DNA of 44,246 bases from Escherichia phage K1E. Location: sequence record KY435490, one strand, 5' to 3'. Each line of letters starts with the position of its first letter. The stretch's first letter is position 1. Below, in pieces: positions 19,097 through 39,627 of the stretch. The position numbers and the translations under genes were made by a program. The notes below the pieces were generated by a model. That model had not been told where the DNA came from. It made no database searches and saw nothing but the letters and a program-made list of their open reading frames with translations.

Positions 19097-19114
19097 CTAT
19101 AGTGTCCAGTAAAT
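19097..19114 (-). promoter_or_regulatory. Phage RNAP promoter (ATTTACTGGACACTATAG) for the capsid gene
   Basis: Exact consensus; transcript starts GAAGGGAGAAATGTCTCCC (5' hairpin). Confidence 0.75.
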
Positions 19115-19119
19115 ACTGA

Positions 19120-20040
19120 TTAAAGTCCGCGAGCCATACCCGCACGGCGGCGAGCATCCAGCTTAGCCTGATACTCAGCAGCAGCTTTCTTGTCTGTACC
19201 GAAGCGGGAACCCAGCGTCATCATCTCACGGAGATACTGCTCGCGAGACAGGGGTCCATTATCCTCAGATGCGGCAGCAGGTGCAGATGGCTCAATCAAG
19301 TTTGGCTTGTCATCACCCTGTGCAGCTTTACGGCGGCTTTCTAGTTCACGCACAGCATATCGCTGGAGGTATTGGTTGCCAGACTCCATCACCGCATTGA
19401 ATGCCGTGAGTTCGTCATCGGACAGCGCTTCCAGCGCCCACGCCTCAAGACGGGACCAACCCTCTTCGCCACCAACTTCCTTAGAAACATCAGAGAAGCG
19501 CTGAGTGTTAGCTGCTTCAAGTTCCTTTGCAGCATTGGCTTCCTTCAGGAAGAAGGCTTCATTCTGCGCTTTCAGGCCAGACAAGTAGGCGTCTACTGCA
19601 AACTTGCCAAAGGCATCATACAGCTTCTGCTTGGTTGCATCGGACAATTCAAACTTGCCATCTTTGGCATAGAGTTCCTTGGCAACCTGCTTAGCATCAA
19701 TACCTTTCTCTTTAAGGCTATCAGTAACATCCTGTGGTATATCTACTGTTACTTCATATTCTCCGAAGAAGTACTGCACTTCCTCAGTGTCGGTCGCGGT
19801 ATCATCTGGCTTAGATTCACCATTCTCTCCGCCATTGTCTCCTTCTTCTGAAGGTTGTCCAGAAGCTTCTCCTCCGGAGCCTTCAGTAGATTGTGCACCA
19901 GCATTGTCATCTTGTACAGAAATGCCAGCATCAGCAGGAACATCAGTAGTAGCAGCATCAGTTGTTACCTCCTTGGTTTCTACCGGATTTTCTTCAGCAG
20001 TAGGATGAGTGGTTGACGGTTCAGTAAATGAGAAAGACAT
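19120..20040 (-). CDS. Scaffolding protein (gp9-like)
   Basis: 306 aa, acidic and low-complexity; between portal and capsid. Confidence 0.8.
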   Translation of the reverse strand: MSFSFTEPSTTHPTAEENPVETKEVTTDAATTDVPADAGISVQDDNAGAQSTEGSGGEASGQPSEEGDNGGENGESKPDDTATDTEEVQYFFGEYEVTVDIPQDVTDSLKEKGIDAKQVAKELYAKDGKFELSDATKQKLYDAFGKFAVDAYLSGLKAQNEAFFLKEANAAKELEAANTQRFSDVSKEVGGEEGWSRLEAWALEALSDDELTAFNAVMESGNQYLQRYAVRELESRRKAAQGDDKPNLIEPSAPAAASEDNGPLSREQYLREMMTLGSRFGTDKKAAAEYQAKLDARRRAGMARGL

Positions 20041-21589
20041 TACGCCTCCTTAAGTTCTTGTTGAATTACACCCGGCACGGCCTTAGCCACACCTTCTTCA
20101 AGCATCTGTGCTTGCTGTGCTTGCATCTGTGCTTCCTGTTCTTGTTCCATCTCTTCAGCCGATTTAAGGAACGGCAGTTCAGCAGAGATTTGACCACGCA
20201 CCCAATCCATATAGTCAGGCCATTTCACAGCAGCTAGGACAGGCTCAGGCCATTGTAATGGCAGTGACATATACTGAGCAAAGTTAGCCAGTTTATCCAA
20301 CTCAGCCATGCGTCCTAAAGCTTCAATACCTGTGATAATCACAGGGTCCACTAAGTCACTAGTGAAGGACTCCCCTGCCTCCAGCAGACCCCACATCGCT
20401 ACTGGCGATTGCATAGTAGTAGCAAAGAGGGAGTATACACCACCCATGTTCTGCTCAATCTCTAACGCATCTCGCTGGATTTCTACAGCAGTAACACGTT
20501 CGGCGTCACGGCGTGTCATTGTCTCCATCATGAAGACAACACCGATACGGCGAGTGTATACCTCTAGAACCGCGCTAATAGGTGTGAGGTCTGCGTACTT
20601 ACCTAACTGTACAATATGGATGTCTTCTTCTACACCAGTGACAACCTCACCAGTGCCAGAGTTAACAAAGTGGTCAACATCAGTTTGAGCACCCGGACGA
20701 ATCAGGTACTTGATATCTGCCATCAGCGCAGCACCACGGGCAACCGCTTCAGATAAGAATTGGATAACGAATAAATCACCGGAGTAATCCTCTGCTAAAG
20801 GACGACCCCAATCCTCACCATAGCTTCGCTTCCAAGTTAGCGGGATAAATGGTAGCTTTTCTGATTTGATTTTACTTACCTTACCAACAGGGATATCATC
20901 AGCAGATTGCTTGAGTTCCCAAAAACCCTCACCAAGATACTTAGCATGTGTGTACAGCTTAATGCTGTCATCTTCCTTGCATTTCTTACCTTTCAGGCCA
21001 ACCTCTACTACAGCACGTGTAGCTGGGTCAAAGGTGCGTAAGGCTTTCTCTTGCAGTAAGATAATGTCTAACAGGTCGCCATTGGTATCACGGTTAACTA
21101 CATAGTGATGCATTGGGATAGCACTGATTGCACCTTTGCTCGGCTTGTATAGCATACAGCTACCAGCAACAATAAGATGCTTGAATGCTTCCACTACAGC
21201 AGGCCGGAATTGACGTTGCTCTAACTCTTTCATTGCCCGTGTTTCCACTTGAGCGAAGATGGTAGCTAGCTCTGTCTTCTTCAGGCCACGCTGATTAAGA
21301 ACCTTCTCACCTTGTGCAGTTAAGTCTACACGGAAGAAGGAACGCTGTGCAGGGAATAGTACTTGCGCTAGCTTGTTGGCTAGATGATTAGTTGCCTGAG
21401 CACCTACACCTTGCCATCCATCTGCGAAGTCTCGTTATCACCTTTGTCATTCATCAGATAGGGCAAGGTTAATTTGGAGTAATGCTTCGCCCTATCAAGG
21501 AAAGAGCTACGTTTAGTGGAGAACTTCTCCCATAGCTTAGGTATCTTAGACCGCTTACCTCCATACTCCAAATCTGTGCTCTGTTTCAT
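20040..21589 (-). CDS. Portal protein (gp8-like), with an apparent 1-nt frameshift between about 21407 and 21434
   Basis: ORF 21404..21589 aligns to the T7 portal N-terminus; ORF 20040..21248 (frame open up to 21434) aligns to the rest (...DGWQGVGAQATNHLANKL...); total 1550 nt, not a multiple of 3. Confidence 0.85.
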
Positions 21590-21590
21590 A

Positions 21591-21800
21591 TTACACCTTC
21601 AAGCTAGAAGCTACCGGACGGACAAGGCCGCGCTTACCTTTTGCAGATGCAGTCGCATCATCACCACCTGCACCAATTTGAATATCTTCAGCTTCAGTCT
21701 CAGGCTTACGCTCAAGCTGCTGTGCTGGGACTTTGGCTTCAATACGTGGTGCATCTTGAGCAAGACCGATAGCCTTAAATGCTTTCTTTACAACACCCAT
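21591..21800 (-). CDS. Small protein upstream of the portal (T7 gp6.7/7.3 position)
   Basis: 69 aa; position only. Confidence 0.45.
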   Translation of the reverse strand: MGVVKKAFKAIGLAQDAPRIEAKVPAQQLERKPETEAEDIQIGAGGDDATASAKGKRGLVRPVASSLKV

Positions 21801-21809
21801 GTTATCTCC

Positions 21810-22271
21810 TTAGAACTTCAGGTTGTACACAGTGCCAAACGGTTCAAAGCCAAGTCGCTTATACATACGTCCGACACGTTCTTCATTAATACCAGAGGCG
21901 ATAGACAGGCGAACCTCAGAGCATTCATTATCACTAGCCCATTGCTTTAGGGCTTTGATGAGACGCATACCAAGTAGGGTTCCTCGCTTCTCTGGTATAA
22001 TATAAAAGAGAATGTCAGAGGCAACCATTACAGGTGTCCAAGGGGCCAACTCGTGATAGCCAGCCCACAGGAACCCTACAATCCGCCCTTCATCTACAGC
22101 AACCCATAGGAATAAATCTTCTCTACTAAGAGATGCACAAAGGTTATGTGCACTTTGTTCTGCATTCCATGAGGCTGAGTGATGGGCTACAACCTTGACT
22201 TCCTCTTCCACATACTTATTCCCAAGGTTTATAATCTCAGGAATATCTAGGAATGAAGCTGGACGTATCAT
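21810..22271 (-). CDS. GNAT-family N-acetyltransferase
   Basis: ...IIPEKRGTLLGMRLIKAL... acetyl-CoA-binding motif; ATG at 22271 overlaps the upstream stop (ATGA). Confidence 0.7.
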   Translation of the reverse strand: MIRPASFLDIPEIINLGNKYVEEEVKVVAHHSASWNAEQSAHNLCASLSREDLFLWVAVDEGRIVGFLWAGYHELAPWTPVMVASDILFYIIPEKRGTLLGMRLIKALKQWASDNECSEVRLSIASGINEERVGRMYKRLGFEPFGTVYNLKF

Positions 22272-22450
22272 TGGACCACCAGTTGTGCTCTGACACAATC
22301 CATTATGTAACGCTTAACTTCATCTACGATTAATTCTTCGTGAGTCTTAGTCACCTTCGGAGAAGAAGGCTTGAGAATCATCTCAAGCATCTCCATACCC
22401 TCAAATGAAATCGTCGGTTTCTTCTTCGTCTGTACCATAGAGTTCTTCAA
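22268..22450 (-). CDS. Hypothetical small protein (60 aa) translationally coupled to the GNAT gene
   Basis: ORF with 4-nt overlap to the GNAT start. Confidence 0.35.
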   Translation of the reverse strand: MKNSMVQTKKKPTISFEGMEMLEMILKPSSPKVTKTHEELIVDEVKRYIMDCVRAQLVVQ

Positions 22451-22616
22451 CCTTCTCTTGGATAGCTTCTACAGAAAGACCAAGCTCTTCTGCATCAGCC
22501 AGTAAAGTATACGGCAATTCCATGCCACAGGATAAAGTTTCAAAGATAGCTTCTGCTACCTCAACTGCACGAGTTGCCTTCATGCTATCAAAAGAAATCT
22601 GGTTCATCTTTGTCAT
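22401..22616 (-). CDS. Hypothetical acidic protein (71 aa)
   Basis: ORF following the ligase; acidic C-terminus. Confidence 0.4.
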   Translation of the reverse strand: MTKMNQISFDSMKATRAVEVAEAIFETLSCGMELPYTLLADAEELGLSVEAIQEKVEELYGTDEEETDDFI

Positions 22617-23535
22617 GTCTTAATTCTCCCGCTTTGGGCAGACGAATGTTGCCCTTGCTTGAATCCTGAAGACCTTTTACTTCAAAGATTTTACCAATGA
22701 CATTCAATCGTCCACCATGTTTAATATCGTGGAACATCTGTTCTGCATCTGCATGAGTCCACCCTTTACCTAACATAGCTTTGATTGTCTTGCCTCCTTT
22801 CCATTTGAAAATGAGGTTAGCTACCTTACCTTTGTACTTACCTTTGCCTTCTTCAAAGCCAATACAAGTAAGGTCATAAGTTACCTTACGGACTTCTTTA
22901 GTCTGACGATAACCTTTGTGGCCTGCTTCATAATCACAGTCCAGTTTAAACACAGCACCCTCTCGGCCTGCGTCTATTTGCTCTTGCGCAAACGCTTCAA
23001 CTTCTCGCTCATTATGGCAAGGAGTAATAGGAAGGATAGCGTTGTACCCGCTAAGATGAGCGCCGATGCGACGATGTAAAGCATAGTAACGTTTGAGATA
23101 AGAAACATCAGTGAATCCATCATGGAATGCCTTAATAGTTAACATATCGAAGAAGTCAATATACAGGTTGTCTTTAATCTGCTGGCCTATGAAATCCAGT
23201 GGCTCAGTGCGGTTAGGGTTAACTACTCCAGAAAGTGCTTCAAGGTAGACATCAATAGCCATAGATTGCAACTCACCGAGATAAATGCCAGTAGGGAAAG
23301 CTGAATAAGATTCTTCCAAGGTTTCCGTGTTAGCCAGTTTCTTTCCAGTGCGTCCAAAGATACCAACGACACCATCGTTGCGAACAACCACAGCACTAAA
23401 TATACCATCTCGTTTTACCTGTGCATAACATGGAAAAGTTAATTTCTTCTCAGGTACTTCACCGCGATGTTTCACCAGCATGAATGGGTGATTGCGGTGG
23501 TCTTCTGGAAGACCTAGGAATTGGAATATATTCAT
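22588..23535 (-). CDS. ATP-dependent DNA ligase
   Basis: KRDG (motif I), EGAVFK (motif IV), LIFKWKG (motif V). Confidence 0.85.
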   Translation of the reverse strand: MNIFQFLGLPEDHRNHPFMLVKHRGEVPEKKLTFPCYAQVKRDGIFSAVVVRNDGVVGIFGRTGKKLANTETLEESYSAFPTGIYLGELQSMAIDVYLEALSGVVNPNRTEPLDFIGQQIKDNLYIDFFDMLTIKAFHDGFTDVSYLKRYYALHRRIGAHLSGYNAILPITPCHNEREVEAFAQEQIDAGREGAVFKLDCDYEAGHKGYRQTKEVRKVTYDLTCIGFEEGKGKYKGKVANLIFKWKGGKTIKAMLGKGWTHADAEQMFHDIKHGGRLNVIGKIFEVKGLQDSSKGNIRLPKAGELRHDKDEPDFF

Positions 23536-23649
23536 ACAGCTTCTTCCTCTTCAATGGTGGTGTCGCAGCTATGACAGAAGTAGAAATGATAAGTATCTGA
23601 CATAACTACATGTTCTGTTTCTTCACTTCCACAATTAGGACAAGTCATA

Positions 23650-24120: not shown

Positions 24121-24176
24121 AATTAATTCCTCCATTCACTATACAATCAAGGGTAAGCTAATACCTACCCTTTGTT

Positions 24177-24194
24177 CTATAGTGTCAACTAAAT
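24177..24194 (-). promoter_or_regulatory. Phage RNAP promoter (ATTTAGTTGACACTATAG)
   Basis: Consensus variant, 57 nt upstream of the start at 24120. Confidence 0.6.
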
Positions 24195-25195
24195 CTTACC
24201 AATCCAGCGATTGTCACTATTGGTCTGCATCGGGACAATGTGCGGCACACCCTCCAGAATAACCACACAACCTAATGCTGGCTTGTATTTGGACTCACGA
24301 CCATAGGCAAATGCACGAGATGACTCATCAATCAAACAGCCGCCCTGCACAGCCCAATACTGTTCATGTGTATTACGTGCGTACTCCACAGACATCTTAC
24401 CATGCAAGTGACCACACACAAGGTTCATACGCTCATGCGCTGCATCTGCTAAGACAGAGCCAGCAGGTTGATGCTTGAATGCTACCTGTTCACCATTCGG
24501 CAACTCAAGTACGTGTGTATGTTGCCAATCCCACTGGTCGCCACCTCCATTTGGGAAGAAGACTTCACGGTATGTACGAAGATATTGCACTGGAATACCC
24601 TTGGCGCTTGCCTTACGGAAGTGCATAGAGCGTGATTAGAATGACACAGGCGCATCACAGGAAACATCTTGTGCAACTTGTGCATGAAGACACGAGCCTT
24701 CTCTAATTCCATGCCAGCACTGTCCAGATTTGGGTCCGAATCGTGGAACGATAAGGCATGTTTGTCTGCCTCATCTCCAAGATGAACCACCGTATCAGGA
24801 CGGTAACGTGCTGCCACTGCTGCAAGGAACTCTAAGGTATCTGGGTGCTCATACGGTGCATGGGTATCAGGGATTACCAGTACACTTCGATGAGGCGAGT
24901 CAGGCAATGGTACAATAGCCAAATCCTCGTAGCGGTCAGGAGTCCTGAGCTTACGCTCTTCCTTGATACGCTTATCCTCTTGCAGAAGGGTCTGGTAGTA
25001 ATCACCATTCTTCTTGGTCTTCTTGAATTGACCATGCCAGTATCGAGCCAACTGGCGGGTAATCTTCTTACCCACAGGGTGACACGATAATACCCGTGCC
25101 ATCTCGTTGTAGTTGACATTACCTTTCTCGTCGGTAGCTTGCTCGATTGCATCAAGTACCTCGGAGTCTTTGTACAAGCTGCGAAGCTTACCCAA
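24189..25195 (-). CDS. Calcineurin-like metallophosphoesterase (Ser/Thr phosphatase-like), with an apparent 1-nt frameshift near 24620..24650
   Basis: Upstream frame has DTH, GDEAD and SNH motifs; downstream frame (ORF 24189..24626) has GHLHG; probable TTG start at 25195 after AGGAGG. Confidence 0.6.
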
Positions 25196-25601
25196 CTTTA
25201 ACCTCCTTCTTCTTTCTTGCATAAGCAAGGCGTGCCTTACGGTTCTTAGCCTCGCGCTTCTCTGCCTCCGTTTGATGTTTATGATAAATCTTATCAGTCT
25301 GAGGCTTACTATGTAACTTCCAGTATTCATACAATCTCTCTAACCATTGAAGCTGGAAGTAACGGTTATTACCCGCCTTGCCATAACCAGAGATAACACC
25401 CTTAATCTTCCCTTCCGCACCATTGCAACCTCGGCATACAACAGCACGGCAGAATCCTGTCTCATGGTCATGGTCAAGTACACGGTTTACAGGTGTGACA
25501 GCTTTGAGACTGCCACCACACAGAGGGCATTTCCATCCTTGCTTATCTAGCAATTCCTTCTTATAAGCTGCCACCTCCGATGCTTTTAATTTGCTAACCA
25601 T
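25188..25601 (-). CDS. Endonuclease VII-like Holliday junction resolvase
   Basis: ...CPLCGGSL...VLDHDHETGFCRAVVCRGCNGAEG... resembles T4 endonuclease VII. Confidence 0.8.
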   Translation of the reverse strand: MVSKLKASEVAAYKKELLDKQGWKCPLCGGSLKAVTPVNRVLDHDHETGFCRAVVCRGCNGAEGKIKGVISGYGKAGNNRYFQLQWLERLYEYWKLHSKPQTDKIYHKHQTEAEKREAKNRKARLAYARKKKEVKVG

Positions 25602-38742: not shown

Positions 38743-39627
38743 TTACTTAGTTAATTCTTCTACTGCCTCAGAGATTAAGGGCCATGCTTCATGGCCTTCG
38801 CCGTAGCCTAGCTTAACCAGTTCGCGGCGTGCCTTGTTAACTGCTGTTTTCTTCGTTGCCTCCTCAGCGCTTAAACCTAAGCGAGCATAGAAGCAGGAAG
38901 ATTTGAATTGCGGCAGCATAGGCGCGGCTGCCTTCTTGCTTTCGCGTGCGCTACTTAAGGAGGCGATGCGGTCATTGGCTGCCTGTAATTGCTCGGTCAG
39001 TGCCTTAATTTGTGCTAAGAGGCTAGCCATAGCGGTGTTTTCGGTATTAGCCGTGTTATCCAGCGGCGCTGCCTTTGGCGCTTCCGGTTTGCTTTCCTCT
39101 TCCCAAGGTGCTGATTCGTCGGCCTCCTGCTCGCTCGCGGGTGGCACTACCTGCGGCGCTTGCATTTCCTGTGATTCTGCGGACTCAGTCGCGTTCTCCT
39201 GCGGTTTTACTGTCTCAGCCTTAGATTGTACCGTTTCGGCCTTTGACTCTTTCTTAGGTTCAATCAGGGCGTTTACGGCATTAGTGTCCAGCTTGCCATC
39301 TGCGGCGAGTTCTGCGGCCTTCTCCATGATTATATTTTCATCAGCGAAAGGAACAAGCGCCAGCATTACACGCATCGCCACGCCTTTAAAGCGATCATCG
39401 CCTTCAAAGACACGGGCTACACTCATCAGCTTGTAACATTGTGCCTTCTTAATGGCAAACTCTGCTTCAACATAGGCTAAAAACTCTTTTTGACCTTCAA
39501 AGTCTCCGCGTAACTCATTCAGACAAGCCCCTACTTTGATGTAAGAAGTGCCAATATTGTCTAAATGTTGCTTGATTTCAGCGGTTGCAGCTTCACGGAC
39601 AGACACGAGGGTGTTTTCAGTAGTCAT
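38743..39627 (-). CDS. Hypothetical early protein (294 aa) with a central acidic low-complexity region
   Basis: ATG at 39627 after AAGGTGA; sits at the T7 gene 0.7 position but has no kinase motifs. Confidence 0.65.
   Translation of the reverse strand: MTTENTLVSVREAATAEIKQHLDNIGTSYIKVGACLNELRGDFEGQKEFLAYVEAEFAIKKAQCYKLMSVARVFEGDDRFKGVAMRVMLALVPFADENIIMEKAAELAADGKLDTNAVNALIEPKKESKAETVQSKAETVKPQENATESAESQEMQAPQVVPPASEQEADESAPWEEESKPEAPKAAPLDNTANTENTAMASLLAQIKALTEQLQAANDRIASLSSARESKKAAAPMLPQFKSSCFYARLGLSAEEATKKTAVNKARRELVKLGYGEGHEAWPLISEAVEELTK

Follow-up and report, generated by a model that had tools for sequence, protein, structure and literature searches.

This study concerns a GNAT N-acetyltransferase gene in the genome of Escherichia phage K1E (sequence record KY435490), and the window analysed is the whole stretch of 44,246 nucleotides. 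The gene lies at 21810..22271 on the minus strand and belongs to the SP6 gp28 family. It runs from the ATG at 22271 to the stop at 21810 and encodes 153 amino acids; every homologue begins at MIR, and the 162-amino-acid form that starts from a TTG at 22298 is a mechanical extension. Because the window runs in reverse orientation, all genes of the module lie on the minus strand, in the order ATP-dependent DNA ligase, ORF-A, ORF-B, GNAT, gp7.3-like protein and portal. Three Pfam models matched the protein above their gathering cut-offs, namely PF00583 Acetyltransf_1 (36.6 bits; cut-off 20.7; 6e-9), PF13508 Acetyltransf_7 (36.1 bits; cut-off 27) and PF13673 Acetyltransf_10 (25.0 bits; cut-off 23.6). 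The PHROG family phrog_1249, annotated 'acetyltransferase', was matched with E 3.3e-53 over residues 9-160 of the 162-residue form and profile positions 8-155 of 180. The AlphaFold model, obtained with 37 homologues, had a predicted local distance difference test score (pLDDT) of 90 and the canonical order b1-a1-a2-b2-b3-b4-a3-b5-a4-b6-b7, that is, a complete predicted GNAT domain. These data establish the fold and bear out the GNAT identification of a first-pass annotation, which had been made from the sequence letters alone.

The small genes around the acetyltransferase were delimited as follows. The open reading frame (ORF) directly upstream, ORF-B (22268..22438, minus strand; SP6 gp27 family; phrog_6507, 2e-37), has its conserved and annotated start at ATG 22438, which gives 56 amino acids, and a TTG at 22450 would give 60. 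Read from the sequence, its stop and the GNAT start share the letters ATGA at 22271-22268 (ATG 22271-22269, TGA 22270-22268). ORF-A (22401..22616, minus strand; SP6 gp26 family; phrog_5860, 5e-41) encodes a strongly acidic helical small protein of 71 amino acids with an isoelectric point (pI) of 4.05 and a net charge of about -14.5, composed of a conserved core (SFDSMKATRAVEVAEAIFE...LGLSVEAI.EKVEELYG) and an acidic tail; it overlaps the ligase end by 29 nucleotides and ORF-B by 38. Downstream, the gene for a T7 gp7.3-like small virion ('ejection wedge') protein of 69 amino acids (21591..21800, minus strand; phrog_1320, 1.9e-11) begins 9 nucleotides past the GNAT stop. The first-pass annotation had described a 71-residue acidic ORF followed by a 60-residue ORF coupled to the GNAT through an ATGA overlap, the three together forming an overlapping module between ligase and portal. 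The acidic ORF and the overlaps were found as described, the 60-residue length has to give way to 56, and the gp7.3-like gene adds a fourth small gene that it had left unmentioned.

ORF-A and ORF-B are genuine genes rather than chance ORFs, because both have PHROG matches and are conserved alongside the GNAT in 33 related loci. Members of the ORF-A family always stand directly after the ligase in SP6-like, Era103, uligo and phi-A318 loci, and a ligase-associated or DNA-mimic role is conceivable for them. Inside ORF-B, at 22369-22388 of the minus strand, a C/T-rich tract follows a perfect 8-bp hairpin (GCTTGAGA-TGAT-TCTCAAGC), an arrangement flagged as resembling a terminator; the hairpin is probably fortuitous, because its LEMILK codons vary among related phages. 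Within the gp7.3-like gene, an alternative-frame ORF of 47-50 amino acids (MHHVLKPKSQ...; 21611-21763, minus strand) is open likewise in many related loci and is probably a by-product of the composition of that gene.

Conservation and transcription of the module

The acetyltransferase gene itself is ordinary, being a known gene of a described PHROG family that is already annotated 'acetyltransferase' in SP6, K1-5-type and many other phage records. OR594179 contains a 100% identical protein, annotated 'acetyltransferase'; identity is 85-100% with the K1-5-type and Vectrevirus proteins and 76% with SP6 gp28; the acetyltransferases of SP6, K1-5 and K1E are the same gene among the same neighbours, with no difference of substance. 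The order ligase, ORF-A, ORF-B, GNAT, gp7.3-like gene and portal was present in 33/33 close loci examined. The equivalents in SP6 are genes 25 (ligase), 26, 27, 28 (acetyltransferase), 29 and 30 (portal), and in the RefSeq genome of mutPK1A2 they are gp30 (ligase), gp31, gp32, gp33 (acetyltransferase), gp34 and gp35 (portal). The statement of the first-pass annotation that a GNAT lies outside the core T7/SP6 gene set is therefore not tenable, since SP6 gene 28 is the same gene and its surroundings are fixed in all of these loci. Our literature searches for functional data on SP6/K1E gp28 found none. In the same mutPK1A2 record, gp49 and gp50 (92 and 95 amino acids; 38849-39431, after the large terminase) are named 'acetyl-CoA acetyltransferase' and are also treated as relatives of K1E gp41 and gp42 in the UAB_Phi78 paper; the name looks like a propagated misannotation, because these proteins are far too small for a thiolase.

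Beyond the close relatives, tblastn found the GNAT in 241 phage records with Escherichia, Klebsiella, Vibrio, Salmonella, Pseudomonas, Proteus, Erwinia and other hosts. Era103, Vibrio phi-A318 and Pseudomonas uligo keep the order of ligase, small ORFs, an ORF overlapping the GNAT start, GNAT, an ORF of 58-77 amino acids and portal, so that the synteny spans Molineuxvirinae and Colwellvirinae (SP6, Era103, phi-A318, uligo). In a database of 5.8 billion proteins, the close GNAT family formed 43 clusters, all at least 52% identical, and those on long contigs all came from contigs measuring about 44-46 kb. Searching 1.8 billion representatives with a profile gave 1229 proteins below 1e-10; the 20 that were looked up were all on metagenomic contigs, 18 of them on contigs of at most 46 kb, and the contigs of the two-domain proteins P0065 and P0074 measured 90 and 58 kb. 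A role specific to the K1 capsule was considered and ruled out, as the gene is also carried by Salmonella, Klebsiella, Proteus, Erwinia and Vibrio phages.

At the DNA level, the region 21500-23600 of the window matches 98 phage records, mostly of Escherichia K1-specific Vectrevirus (K1E/K1-5-like; Autographiviridae, Molineuxvirinae), the best being 99.8% identical. This best match, OR594181.1, is flagged UNVERIFIED and bears the name vB_EcoM and a Kayfunavirus classification; its feature table is shifted relative to the sequence, with tail and internal virion features placed over the ligase, GNAT and portal region.

The transcriptional setting of the module was derived from the phage-polymerase promoters. 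The motif CACTATAG occurs in 12 copies in the window against 1.8 expected, 11 of them on the minus strand, and their consensus ATTTACTGGACACTATAGAAG is of the K1E/SP6 type. The copy that heads the transcription unit holding the module (ATTTAGTTGACACTATAGAACA; 24173..24194, minus strand) precedes a gp1.7-like kinase gene, and the next one downstream, at 19097, precedes the capsid gene. Because no further copy of the motif lies between these two, the kinase, a 44-amino-acid ORF, the ligase (22588..23535, minus strand; 315 amino acids; Pfam DNA_ligase_A_M and DNA_ligase_OB_2; phrog_114, 5e-72), ORF-A, ORF-B, the GNAT, the gp7.3-like gene, the portal and the scaffold gene should form one phage-polymerase unit. 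The module is predicted to belong to the middle/late class and not to the early one.

The source record contains two interrupted genes in this region. The portal (head-tail connector) gene at 20040..21589 on the minus strand is split by a frameshift into ORFs at 21404-21589 and 20040-21248, with Pfam Head-tail_con matched on both pieces. A 1-nucleotide deletion near 21422 changes GCAGAATGG to GCAG-ATGG relative to three close relatives, and the portal region measures 1550 nucleotides here and 1551 in those relatives. Since the portal is essential, an error of sequencing or assembly in the source record is the likeliest cause. The metallophosphoesterase gene (start near 25195, stop at 24189, minus strand) is likewise split, into ORFs at 24482-25330 and 24189-24626, by a 1-nucleotide deletion near 24632 (CACGGCT to CAC-GCT), and two frameshifts inside 4 kb suggest a low-accuracy assembly.

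The breadth of hosts and the predicted timing bear on a role in anti-defence, in which the GNAT would acetylate and inactivate a bacterial immune protein as AcrVA5 does with Cas12a. Acetylation has a precedent as a counter-defence (cited in PMC7552054), and mutations in a phage GNAT let Streptomyces phages escape a lanthipeptide defence (review PMC12360287). Nevertheless, the K1E gene has a fixed position in all close relatives, with hosts ranging from Escherichia, Salmonella, Klebsiella and Proteus to Erwinia and Vibrio, and its promoter is of the middle/late and not the early type; a fixed position with late expression is not typical of anti-defence genes. Further, a PADLOC search of the GNAT gave no match and thus no link to a defence system. 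We regard this role as improbable.

The pre-portal slot in Rac-encoding phages and T7

The place of the gene directly before the gp7.3-like gene and the portal is shared with the only characterised gene at an equivalent position. LUZ19 gp28 (Rac) is a predicted GNAT whose gene overlaps the first structural gene and is located downstream of the one for the phage RNA polymerase (PMC7552054). It is toxic to P. aeruginosa, raises lysine acetylation, and suffices alone, without other phage proteins, for cleavage of RpoA at Q244-E245, an effect abolished by mutations in the acetyl-CoA pocket (PMC7552054). The LUZ19 order of gp27 (83 amino acids), Rac, gp29 (a virion protein) and gp30 (portal) is the layout found in the window. 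Rac-type GNATs also stand directly before a gp7.3-like gene and the portal in LKA1, J8-65, gh-1 (6.7, GNAT, 7.3, 8), Lepni01 and 35 further viral contigs. In the window as in LUZ19, a GNAT of about 150 amino acids in an Autographiviridae phage is preceded by a small, translationally coupled ORF, and the two small ORFs appear homologous.

The two enzymes nevertheless fall into different PHROG families, phrog_3986 for Rac and phrog_1249 for the SP6 type. The C-terminal half of Rac is divergent (HRxGxGRYxxxYRR) and its loop retains the fourth-position Gly, whereas the SP6 type has a canonical motif B and a loop without this Gly; the hosts and the RpoA linker sequences also differ, and the SP6 type is known here from sequence. 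The window GNAT had no match to phrog_3986 at E<=0.01 and scored 11 bits with a hidden Markov model (HMM) of 30 Rac-type sequences. In the opposite direction, the sole PHROG match of LUZ19 Rac beyond its own family was phrog_1249 (E 5e-4), and 7 of 8 further Rac-type proteins matched phrog_1249 with E 1e-5 to 0.016, more often than any other acetyltransferase-annotated family, with phrog_3810 scoring about equal to it in one of the eight. The nearest PDB sequences common to both families were SSAT/thialysine acetyltransferases, AAC(6')-Iy, 2fe7 and PA4794. Homologues of Rac sought in the large protein database amounted to a single cluster. A direct homology of the window GNAT to Rac was not retained: BLASTP gave nothing, the family alignment by hhalign was weak, and its support comes down to the PHROG cross-matches and the synteny.

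The same slot in T7 has the order 6.7, 7, 7.3, (7.7), 8, with gene 7 annotated 'host range' in the record. T7 gp7 corresponds to phrog_2746 in a PHROG scan of the T7 protein, and the same 7 of 8 Rac-type proteins, not including LUZ19 Rac, matched this family with E 2e-12 to 2e-5. T7 gp7 in turn matched phrog_3986 at 0.025 and the Rac-type HMM at 10 bits. The protein is distantly related to the Rac-type GNAT family. No Pfam GNAT model recognises T7 gp7, its cofactor loop (PEADSKG) has lost the conserved Arg, and no direct similarity to the window GNAT was detected; T7 gene 7 may be a degenerate GNAT. By position, the window GNAT corresponds to both T7 gene 7 and Rac; common descent is plausible, not proven.

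The neighbourhood of virion genes raises the alternative that the GNAT modifies a phage protein in morphogenesis, such as the gp7.3-like wedge or another virion or ejection protein, so that its absence would yield particles of reduced infectivity on some hosts. T7 gp7.3 matches phrog_1320 at 1e-29 and Pfam VirionAssem_T7, and the phiKMV-like counterpart has been identified as a gp7.3 orthologue which, during ejection, holds the nozzle open as a wedge (2026 preprint). A gp7.3-like protein is always encoded between GNAT and portal in the 33 close loci, within at most 9 nucleotides of the GNAT. The 'host range' label of the T7 slot, the joint transcription with structural genes, and the location of distant family members inside structural modules of other podophages, beside portal-like, tail and terminase genes, would all fit such a target. 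However, the 'host range' phenotype of T7 gene 7 is taken here from the record annotation, and as T7 gp7 is without the loop Arg the phenotype need not depend on acetylation; further, Rac acts on the host without other phage proteins. We know of no acetylated virion protein in these phages, and we consider a phage-protein target rather unlikely.

The Rac-type enzyme itself is not part of the virion. The gh-1-like phage phiPsa17 labels its GNAT 'gp7', and mass spectrometry of its virions found gp6.7, gp7.3, gp8 and others, not gp7; the structural atlas of Ar-KM lists 14 structural proteins, none of them a GNAT. By analogy, the SP6-type enzyme would be non-structural as well.

The upstream partner, ORF-B, was compared with the small pre-portal proteins of other phages. 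Its AlphaFold model (pLDDT 90) has a short strand, a helix at residues 12-21, a 10-residue loop, a helix at 33-52 and a short strand pairing with the first. The small ORFs upstream of Rac-type GNATs share the motif V-x-F-T-x-E-Q-x-x-W-L-E-x-x-F-P ... T-T-M-x-x-I-Q-x-x-A-G-x-R-x-V, and a pre-portal family of 60-65 amino acids in T7-like phages has L-P-x-T-V-x-E-L-x-x-L-L-x-x-x-[FY]-P-E-K ... I-x-F-x-A-G-Q-R-D-V-V. This latter family, present upstream of many T7-like portal genes, is homologous to LUZ19 gp27; the inspected loci encode one or more 6.7/7.3-like small proteins of the 'MC...SGLNI' type after it.

An hhalign comparison of SP6-type ORF-B (35 sequences) with the gp27 type (19 sequences) gave a probability of 61%, P 7.9e-5 and a score of 28.0 over 48 columns; 150 column shuffles gave 7.8 +/- 1.8 with a maximum of 14.3, and the reversed control gave 12. 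The gp27 type aligned with mostly environmental, marine-looking B-like ORFs (32 sequences) at 97.7%, P 2e-12 and a score of 63.7, a comparison run without controls. Against the merged set (51 sequences), SP6-type ORF-B reached 74.5%, P 2.7e-5 and a score of 27.9 over 55 columns, with shuffles at 7.6 +/- 2.2 and the reversed control at 13.4. An identity of ORF-B with T7 gp6.5 (DUF2717) was rejected: the position is alike, but neither ORF-B-type HMM detects the gp6.5 of T7, gh-1 or Lepni01.

The distribution of the two genes was then read from a portal-anchored sample of 80 Autographiviridae-like contigs, 62 of which had enough upstream sequence. A gp27-like ORF upstream of the portal with no detected GNAT was present in 26 of the 62 loci, an SP6-type GNAT in 6, and neither a GNAT nor a gp27-like ORF in 30. 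Most of the 26 gp27-like ORFs lie about 215-245 nucleotides upstream of the portal, which leaves room only for a 6.7/7.3-like 'MC...' protein. Conversely, gh-1-type phages and Lepni01 carry the GNAT without an ORF-B-like ORF. There is moderate evidence, at the level of sequence comparison, that ORF-B belongs to a widespread pre-portal small-protein family independent of the GNAT; the occurrence of this family without a GNAT, and of the gh-1 GNAT without ORF-B, therefore argues against ORF-B as an antitoxin or obligate partner, and an obligate pairing of the two does not appear in these loci.

The first-pass annotation had raised the possibility of a toxin-antitoxin-like pair, in which the GNAT would be a translation-blocking toxin like TacT or AtaT and ORF-B its antitoxin. 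The ATGA overlap of a small upstream ORF with the GNAT start, the similar size and the GNAT fold do resemble the TacT/AtaT/KacT/ItaT systems with their DUF1778 antitoxins, and the LUZ19 protein encoded at this position, Rac, is toxic by itself. In the window pair, however, ORF-B has no ribbon-helix-helix or DUF1778 domain, and a comparison of the GNAT with PDB sequences, taken to E<=10, gave no match to TacT, AtaT, KacT or ItaT. With a pI of 5.8 the GNAT is acidic, its gh-1-type counterpart has no ORF-B homologue, and the related gp27 family, to which the link of ORF-B is of moderate strength, occurs without a detected GNAT in the 26 loci above. Moreover, the pair sits at a fixed core position in a long, middle/late phage-polymerase operon of an obligately lytic phage. 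These data make a toxin-antitoxin pair very improbable.

The cofactor site and the possible target of acetylation

Conservation was counted over 150 family representatives at 50% identity. On the cofactor side, R96 is conserved in 147 of them, G97 in 130, A/G101 in 135, S/T126 in 137 and G127 in 119; further conserved residues are R/K132 (117), Y137 (103), D/E86 (133) and Y90 (111). Variability is highest on the alpha1-alpha2 acceptor side, at 3.09 bits against 2.26-2.28 bits. A conserved cofactor side with a variable acceptor side fits what would be expected of an active enzyme with a lineage-specific target.

The pyrophosphate loop of the K1E protein reads R96-G97-T-L-L-G101, and the family-wide pattern R-G-x-x-x-[A/G] departs from the usual Q/R-x-x-G-x-G/A. 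In GNAT enzymes, the pyrophosphate of acetyl-CoA is held through backbone amides of this loop, and for this reason the loop sequence alone cannot decide cofactor binding. Acetyltransferase activity is probable, not certain, since the cofactor side is conserved and the fourth-position Gly is missing. The non-canonical loop, together with the replacement of Y137 by Phe in several members, could also reflect a GNAT fold kept as a non-catalytic binding or scaffolding protein, as may hold for T7 gp7, the distant Rac-family relative that no Pfam GNAT model matches. Yet more than 100 of the 150 representatives retain the loop Arg-Gly, the motif B residues, D86 and Y90, and the predicted structure is a complete, confident GNAT domain; a loss of catalysis therefore appears quite improbable.

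The enzyme relatives suggest a different kind of substrate. With the family profile, the best PDB sequence matches were the polyamine acetyltransferase Dpa (8e-5) and thialysine/diamine acetyltransferase 2 (2.6e-4), followed by AAC(6') and phosphinothricin acetyltransferases (PAT). These small-molecule amine GNATs (Dpa, SSAT1/2, thialysine acetyltransferase, AAC(6'), PAT/ArsN1) are single-domain proteins of the same size. The K1E enzyme could accordingly acetylate a polyamine, a diamine or a thialysine-like or aminoglycoside-like amine, for instance tuning polyamine charge during DNA packaging or detoxifying an inhibitory metabolite, and the acidic and aromatic residues invariant in the SP6 subgroup (D9, Y20, E24, W35, W69, W78, D86 and Y90) could serve such a substrate.

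On the other hand, these similarities reach E values of only 1e-4 to 1e-2, the substrate-side residues are not common to the families, and all matches are far under the curated cut-offs. Among the NCBIfam equivalogs, ArsN1a scored 26.8 bits against a cut-off of 170, AAC_6p_group_E 24.6 against 140 and rimI 22.4 against 86.4, and MshD was likewise well under its own, so that the AAC(6')- and rimI-type comparisons proposed in the first-pass annotation gave no assignment either, although ArsN1 and AAC(6') were the best of the set. The variability of the acceptor side across the wider family would be unexpected for a universal metabolite, and Rac, the sole characterised enzyme at this genome position, acts through proteins. 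A small-molecule substrate is unlikely, though it deserves to be weighed ahead of the other alternatives considered here.

Our preferred interpretation, with a probability of roughly 0.4, is a catalytically active protein acetyltransferase of the middle/late class that is not structural and whose substrates are host (or possibly phage) proteins; it would match Rac in function and might be its orthologue. A role in takeover by acetylating a host target, which the first-pass annotation had proposed, thus remains the most plausible one by analogy with LUZ19 Rac at the equivalent position; the GNAT identity on which that proposal was built holds, and its premise of an added, non-core gene does not. 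The analysis shows the fold, a conserved cofactor site, the conservation and synteny of the gene and its transcription unit, and from these comparisons we infer catalytic activity, a protein substrate and an effect on the host. The phage polymerase would transcribe the GNAT in the middle/late phase along with the kinase, ligase, ORF-A, ORF-B, gp7.3-like, portal and scaffold genes, and the acetyl-CoA-dependent enzyme would then acetylate proteins in the infected cell, probably host ones. This acetylation may help to complete host takeover, for example through a shutoff of host transcription resembling that by Rac. On this interpretation, ORF-B is a separately conserved pre-portal small protein that is translationally coupled to the GNAT and not an antitoxin. 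The annotation of the close relative mutPK1A2 lists neither a gp2-like nor a gp0.7-like host-shutoff gene, which weakly suggests room for another shutoff mechanism.

Several observations weigh against this interpretation. BLASTP detected no similarity between the window GNAT and Rac, and the hhalign comparison of the two families gave a probability of 11% with E 0.003, confined to the motif A region, so that the resemblance could be a generic GNAT one. The common position could reflect repeated insertion into a permissive slot, and in many T7-like phages nothing separates the ORF-B-like, gp7.3-like and portal genes. The fourth-position loop Gly is absent across the whole family, and Y137 is Phe in some members. 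The closest solved structures by sequence are those of small-molecule amine acetyltransferases (Dpa, SSAT/thialysine, AAC(6'), PAT), and expression alongside the structural genes is late for a takeover function. Even among Rac homologues the effect is not general, as the LKA1 protein does not cleave RpoA (PMC7552054); in P. putida, Rac is without effect.

A broader interpretation would be that the SP6-type GNAT, Rac and T7 gp7 are diverged descendants of one 'gene 7' acetyltransferase, which together with ORF-B/gp27 and gp7.3 made up an ancient pre-portal cassette of the Autographiviridae. The SP6 type would then be a still-active protein acetyltransferase that shuts the host down or conditions the infectivity of the progeny in enterobacterial hosts. 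We hold this broader interpretation to be doubtful as a whole. If it were true, the common ancestry would give a biochemical function to the long-unexplained 'host range' gene 7 position of T7.

For annotation, the gains are modest and held with moderate confidence: a pre-portal slot shared with Rac and T7 gene 7, a wider ORF-B family, and a link between T7 gp7 and Rac. The SP6-type GNAT is among the few enzymes of unexplained role that are fixed at one position across therapeutic-candidate phages (K1E/K1-5/SP6-like), and Rac, the sole characterised gene at the equivalent position, revealed an unusual acetylation-based route of host shutoff. If the SP6-type enzyme does act on host proteins, it would provide an enterobacterial model for phage-driven acetylation, and such acetylation might explain how these phages silence the host without annotated homologues of T7 gp0.7 or gp2.

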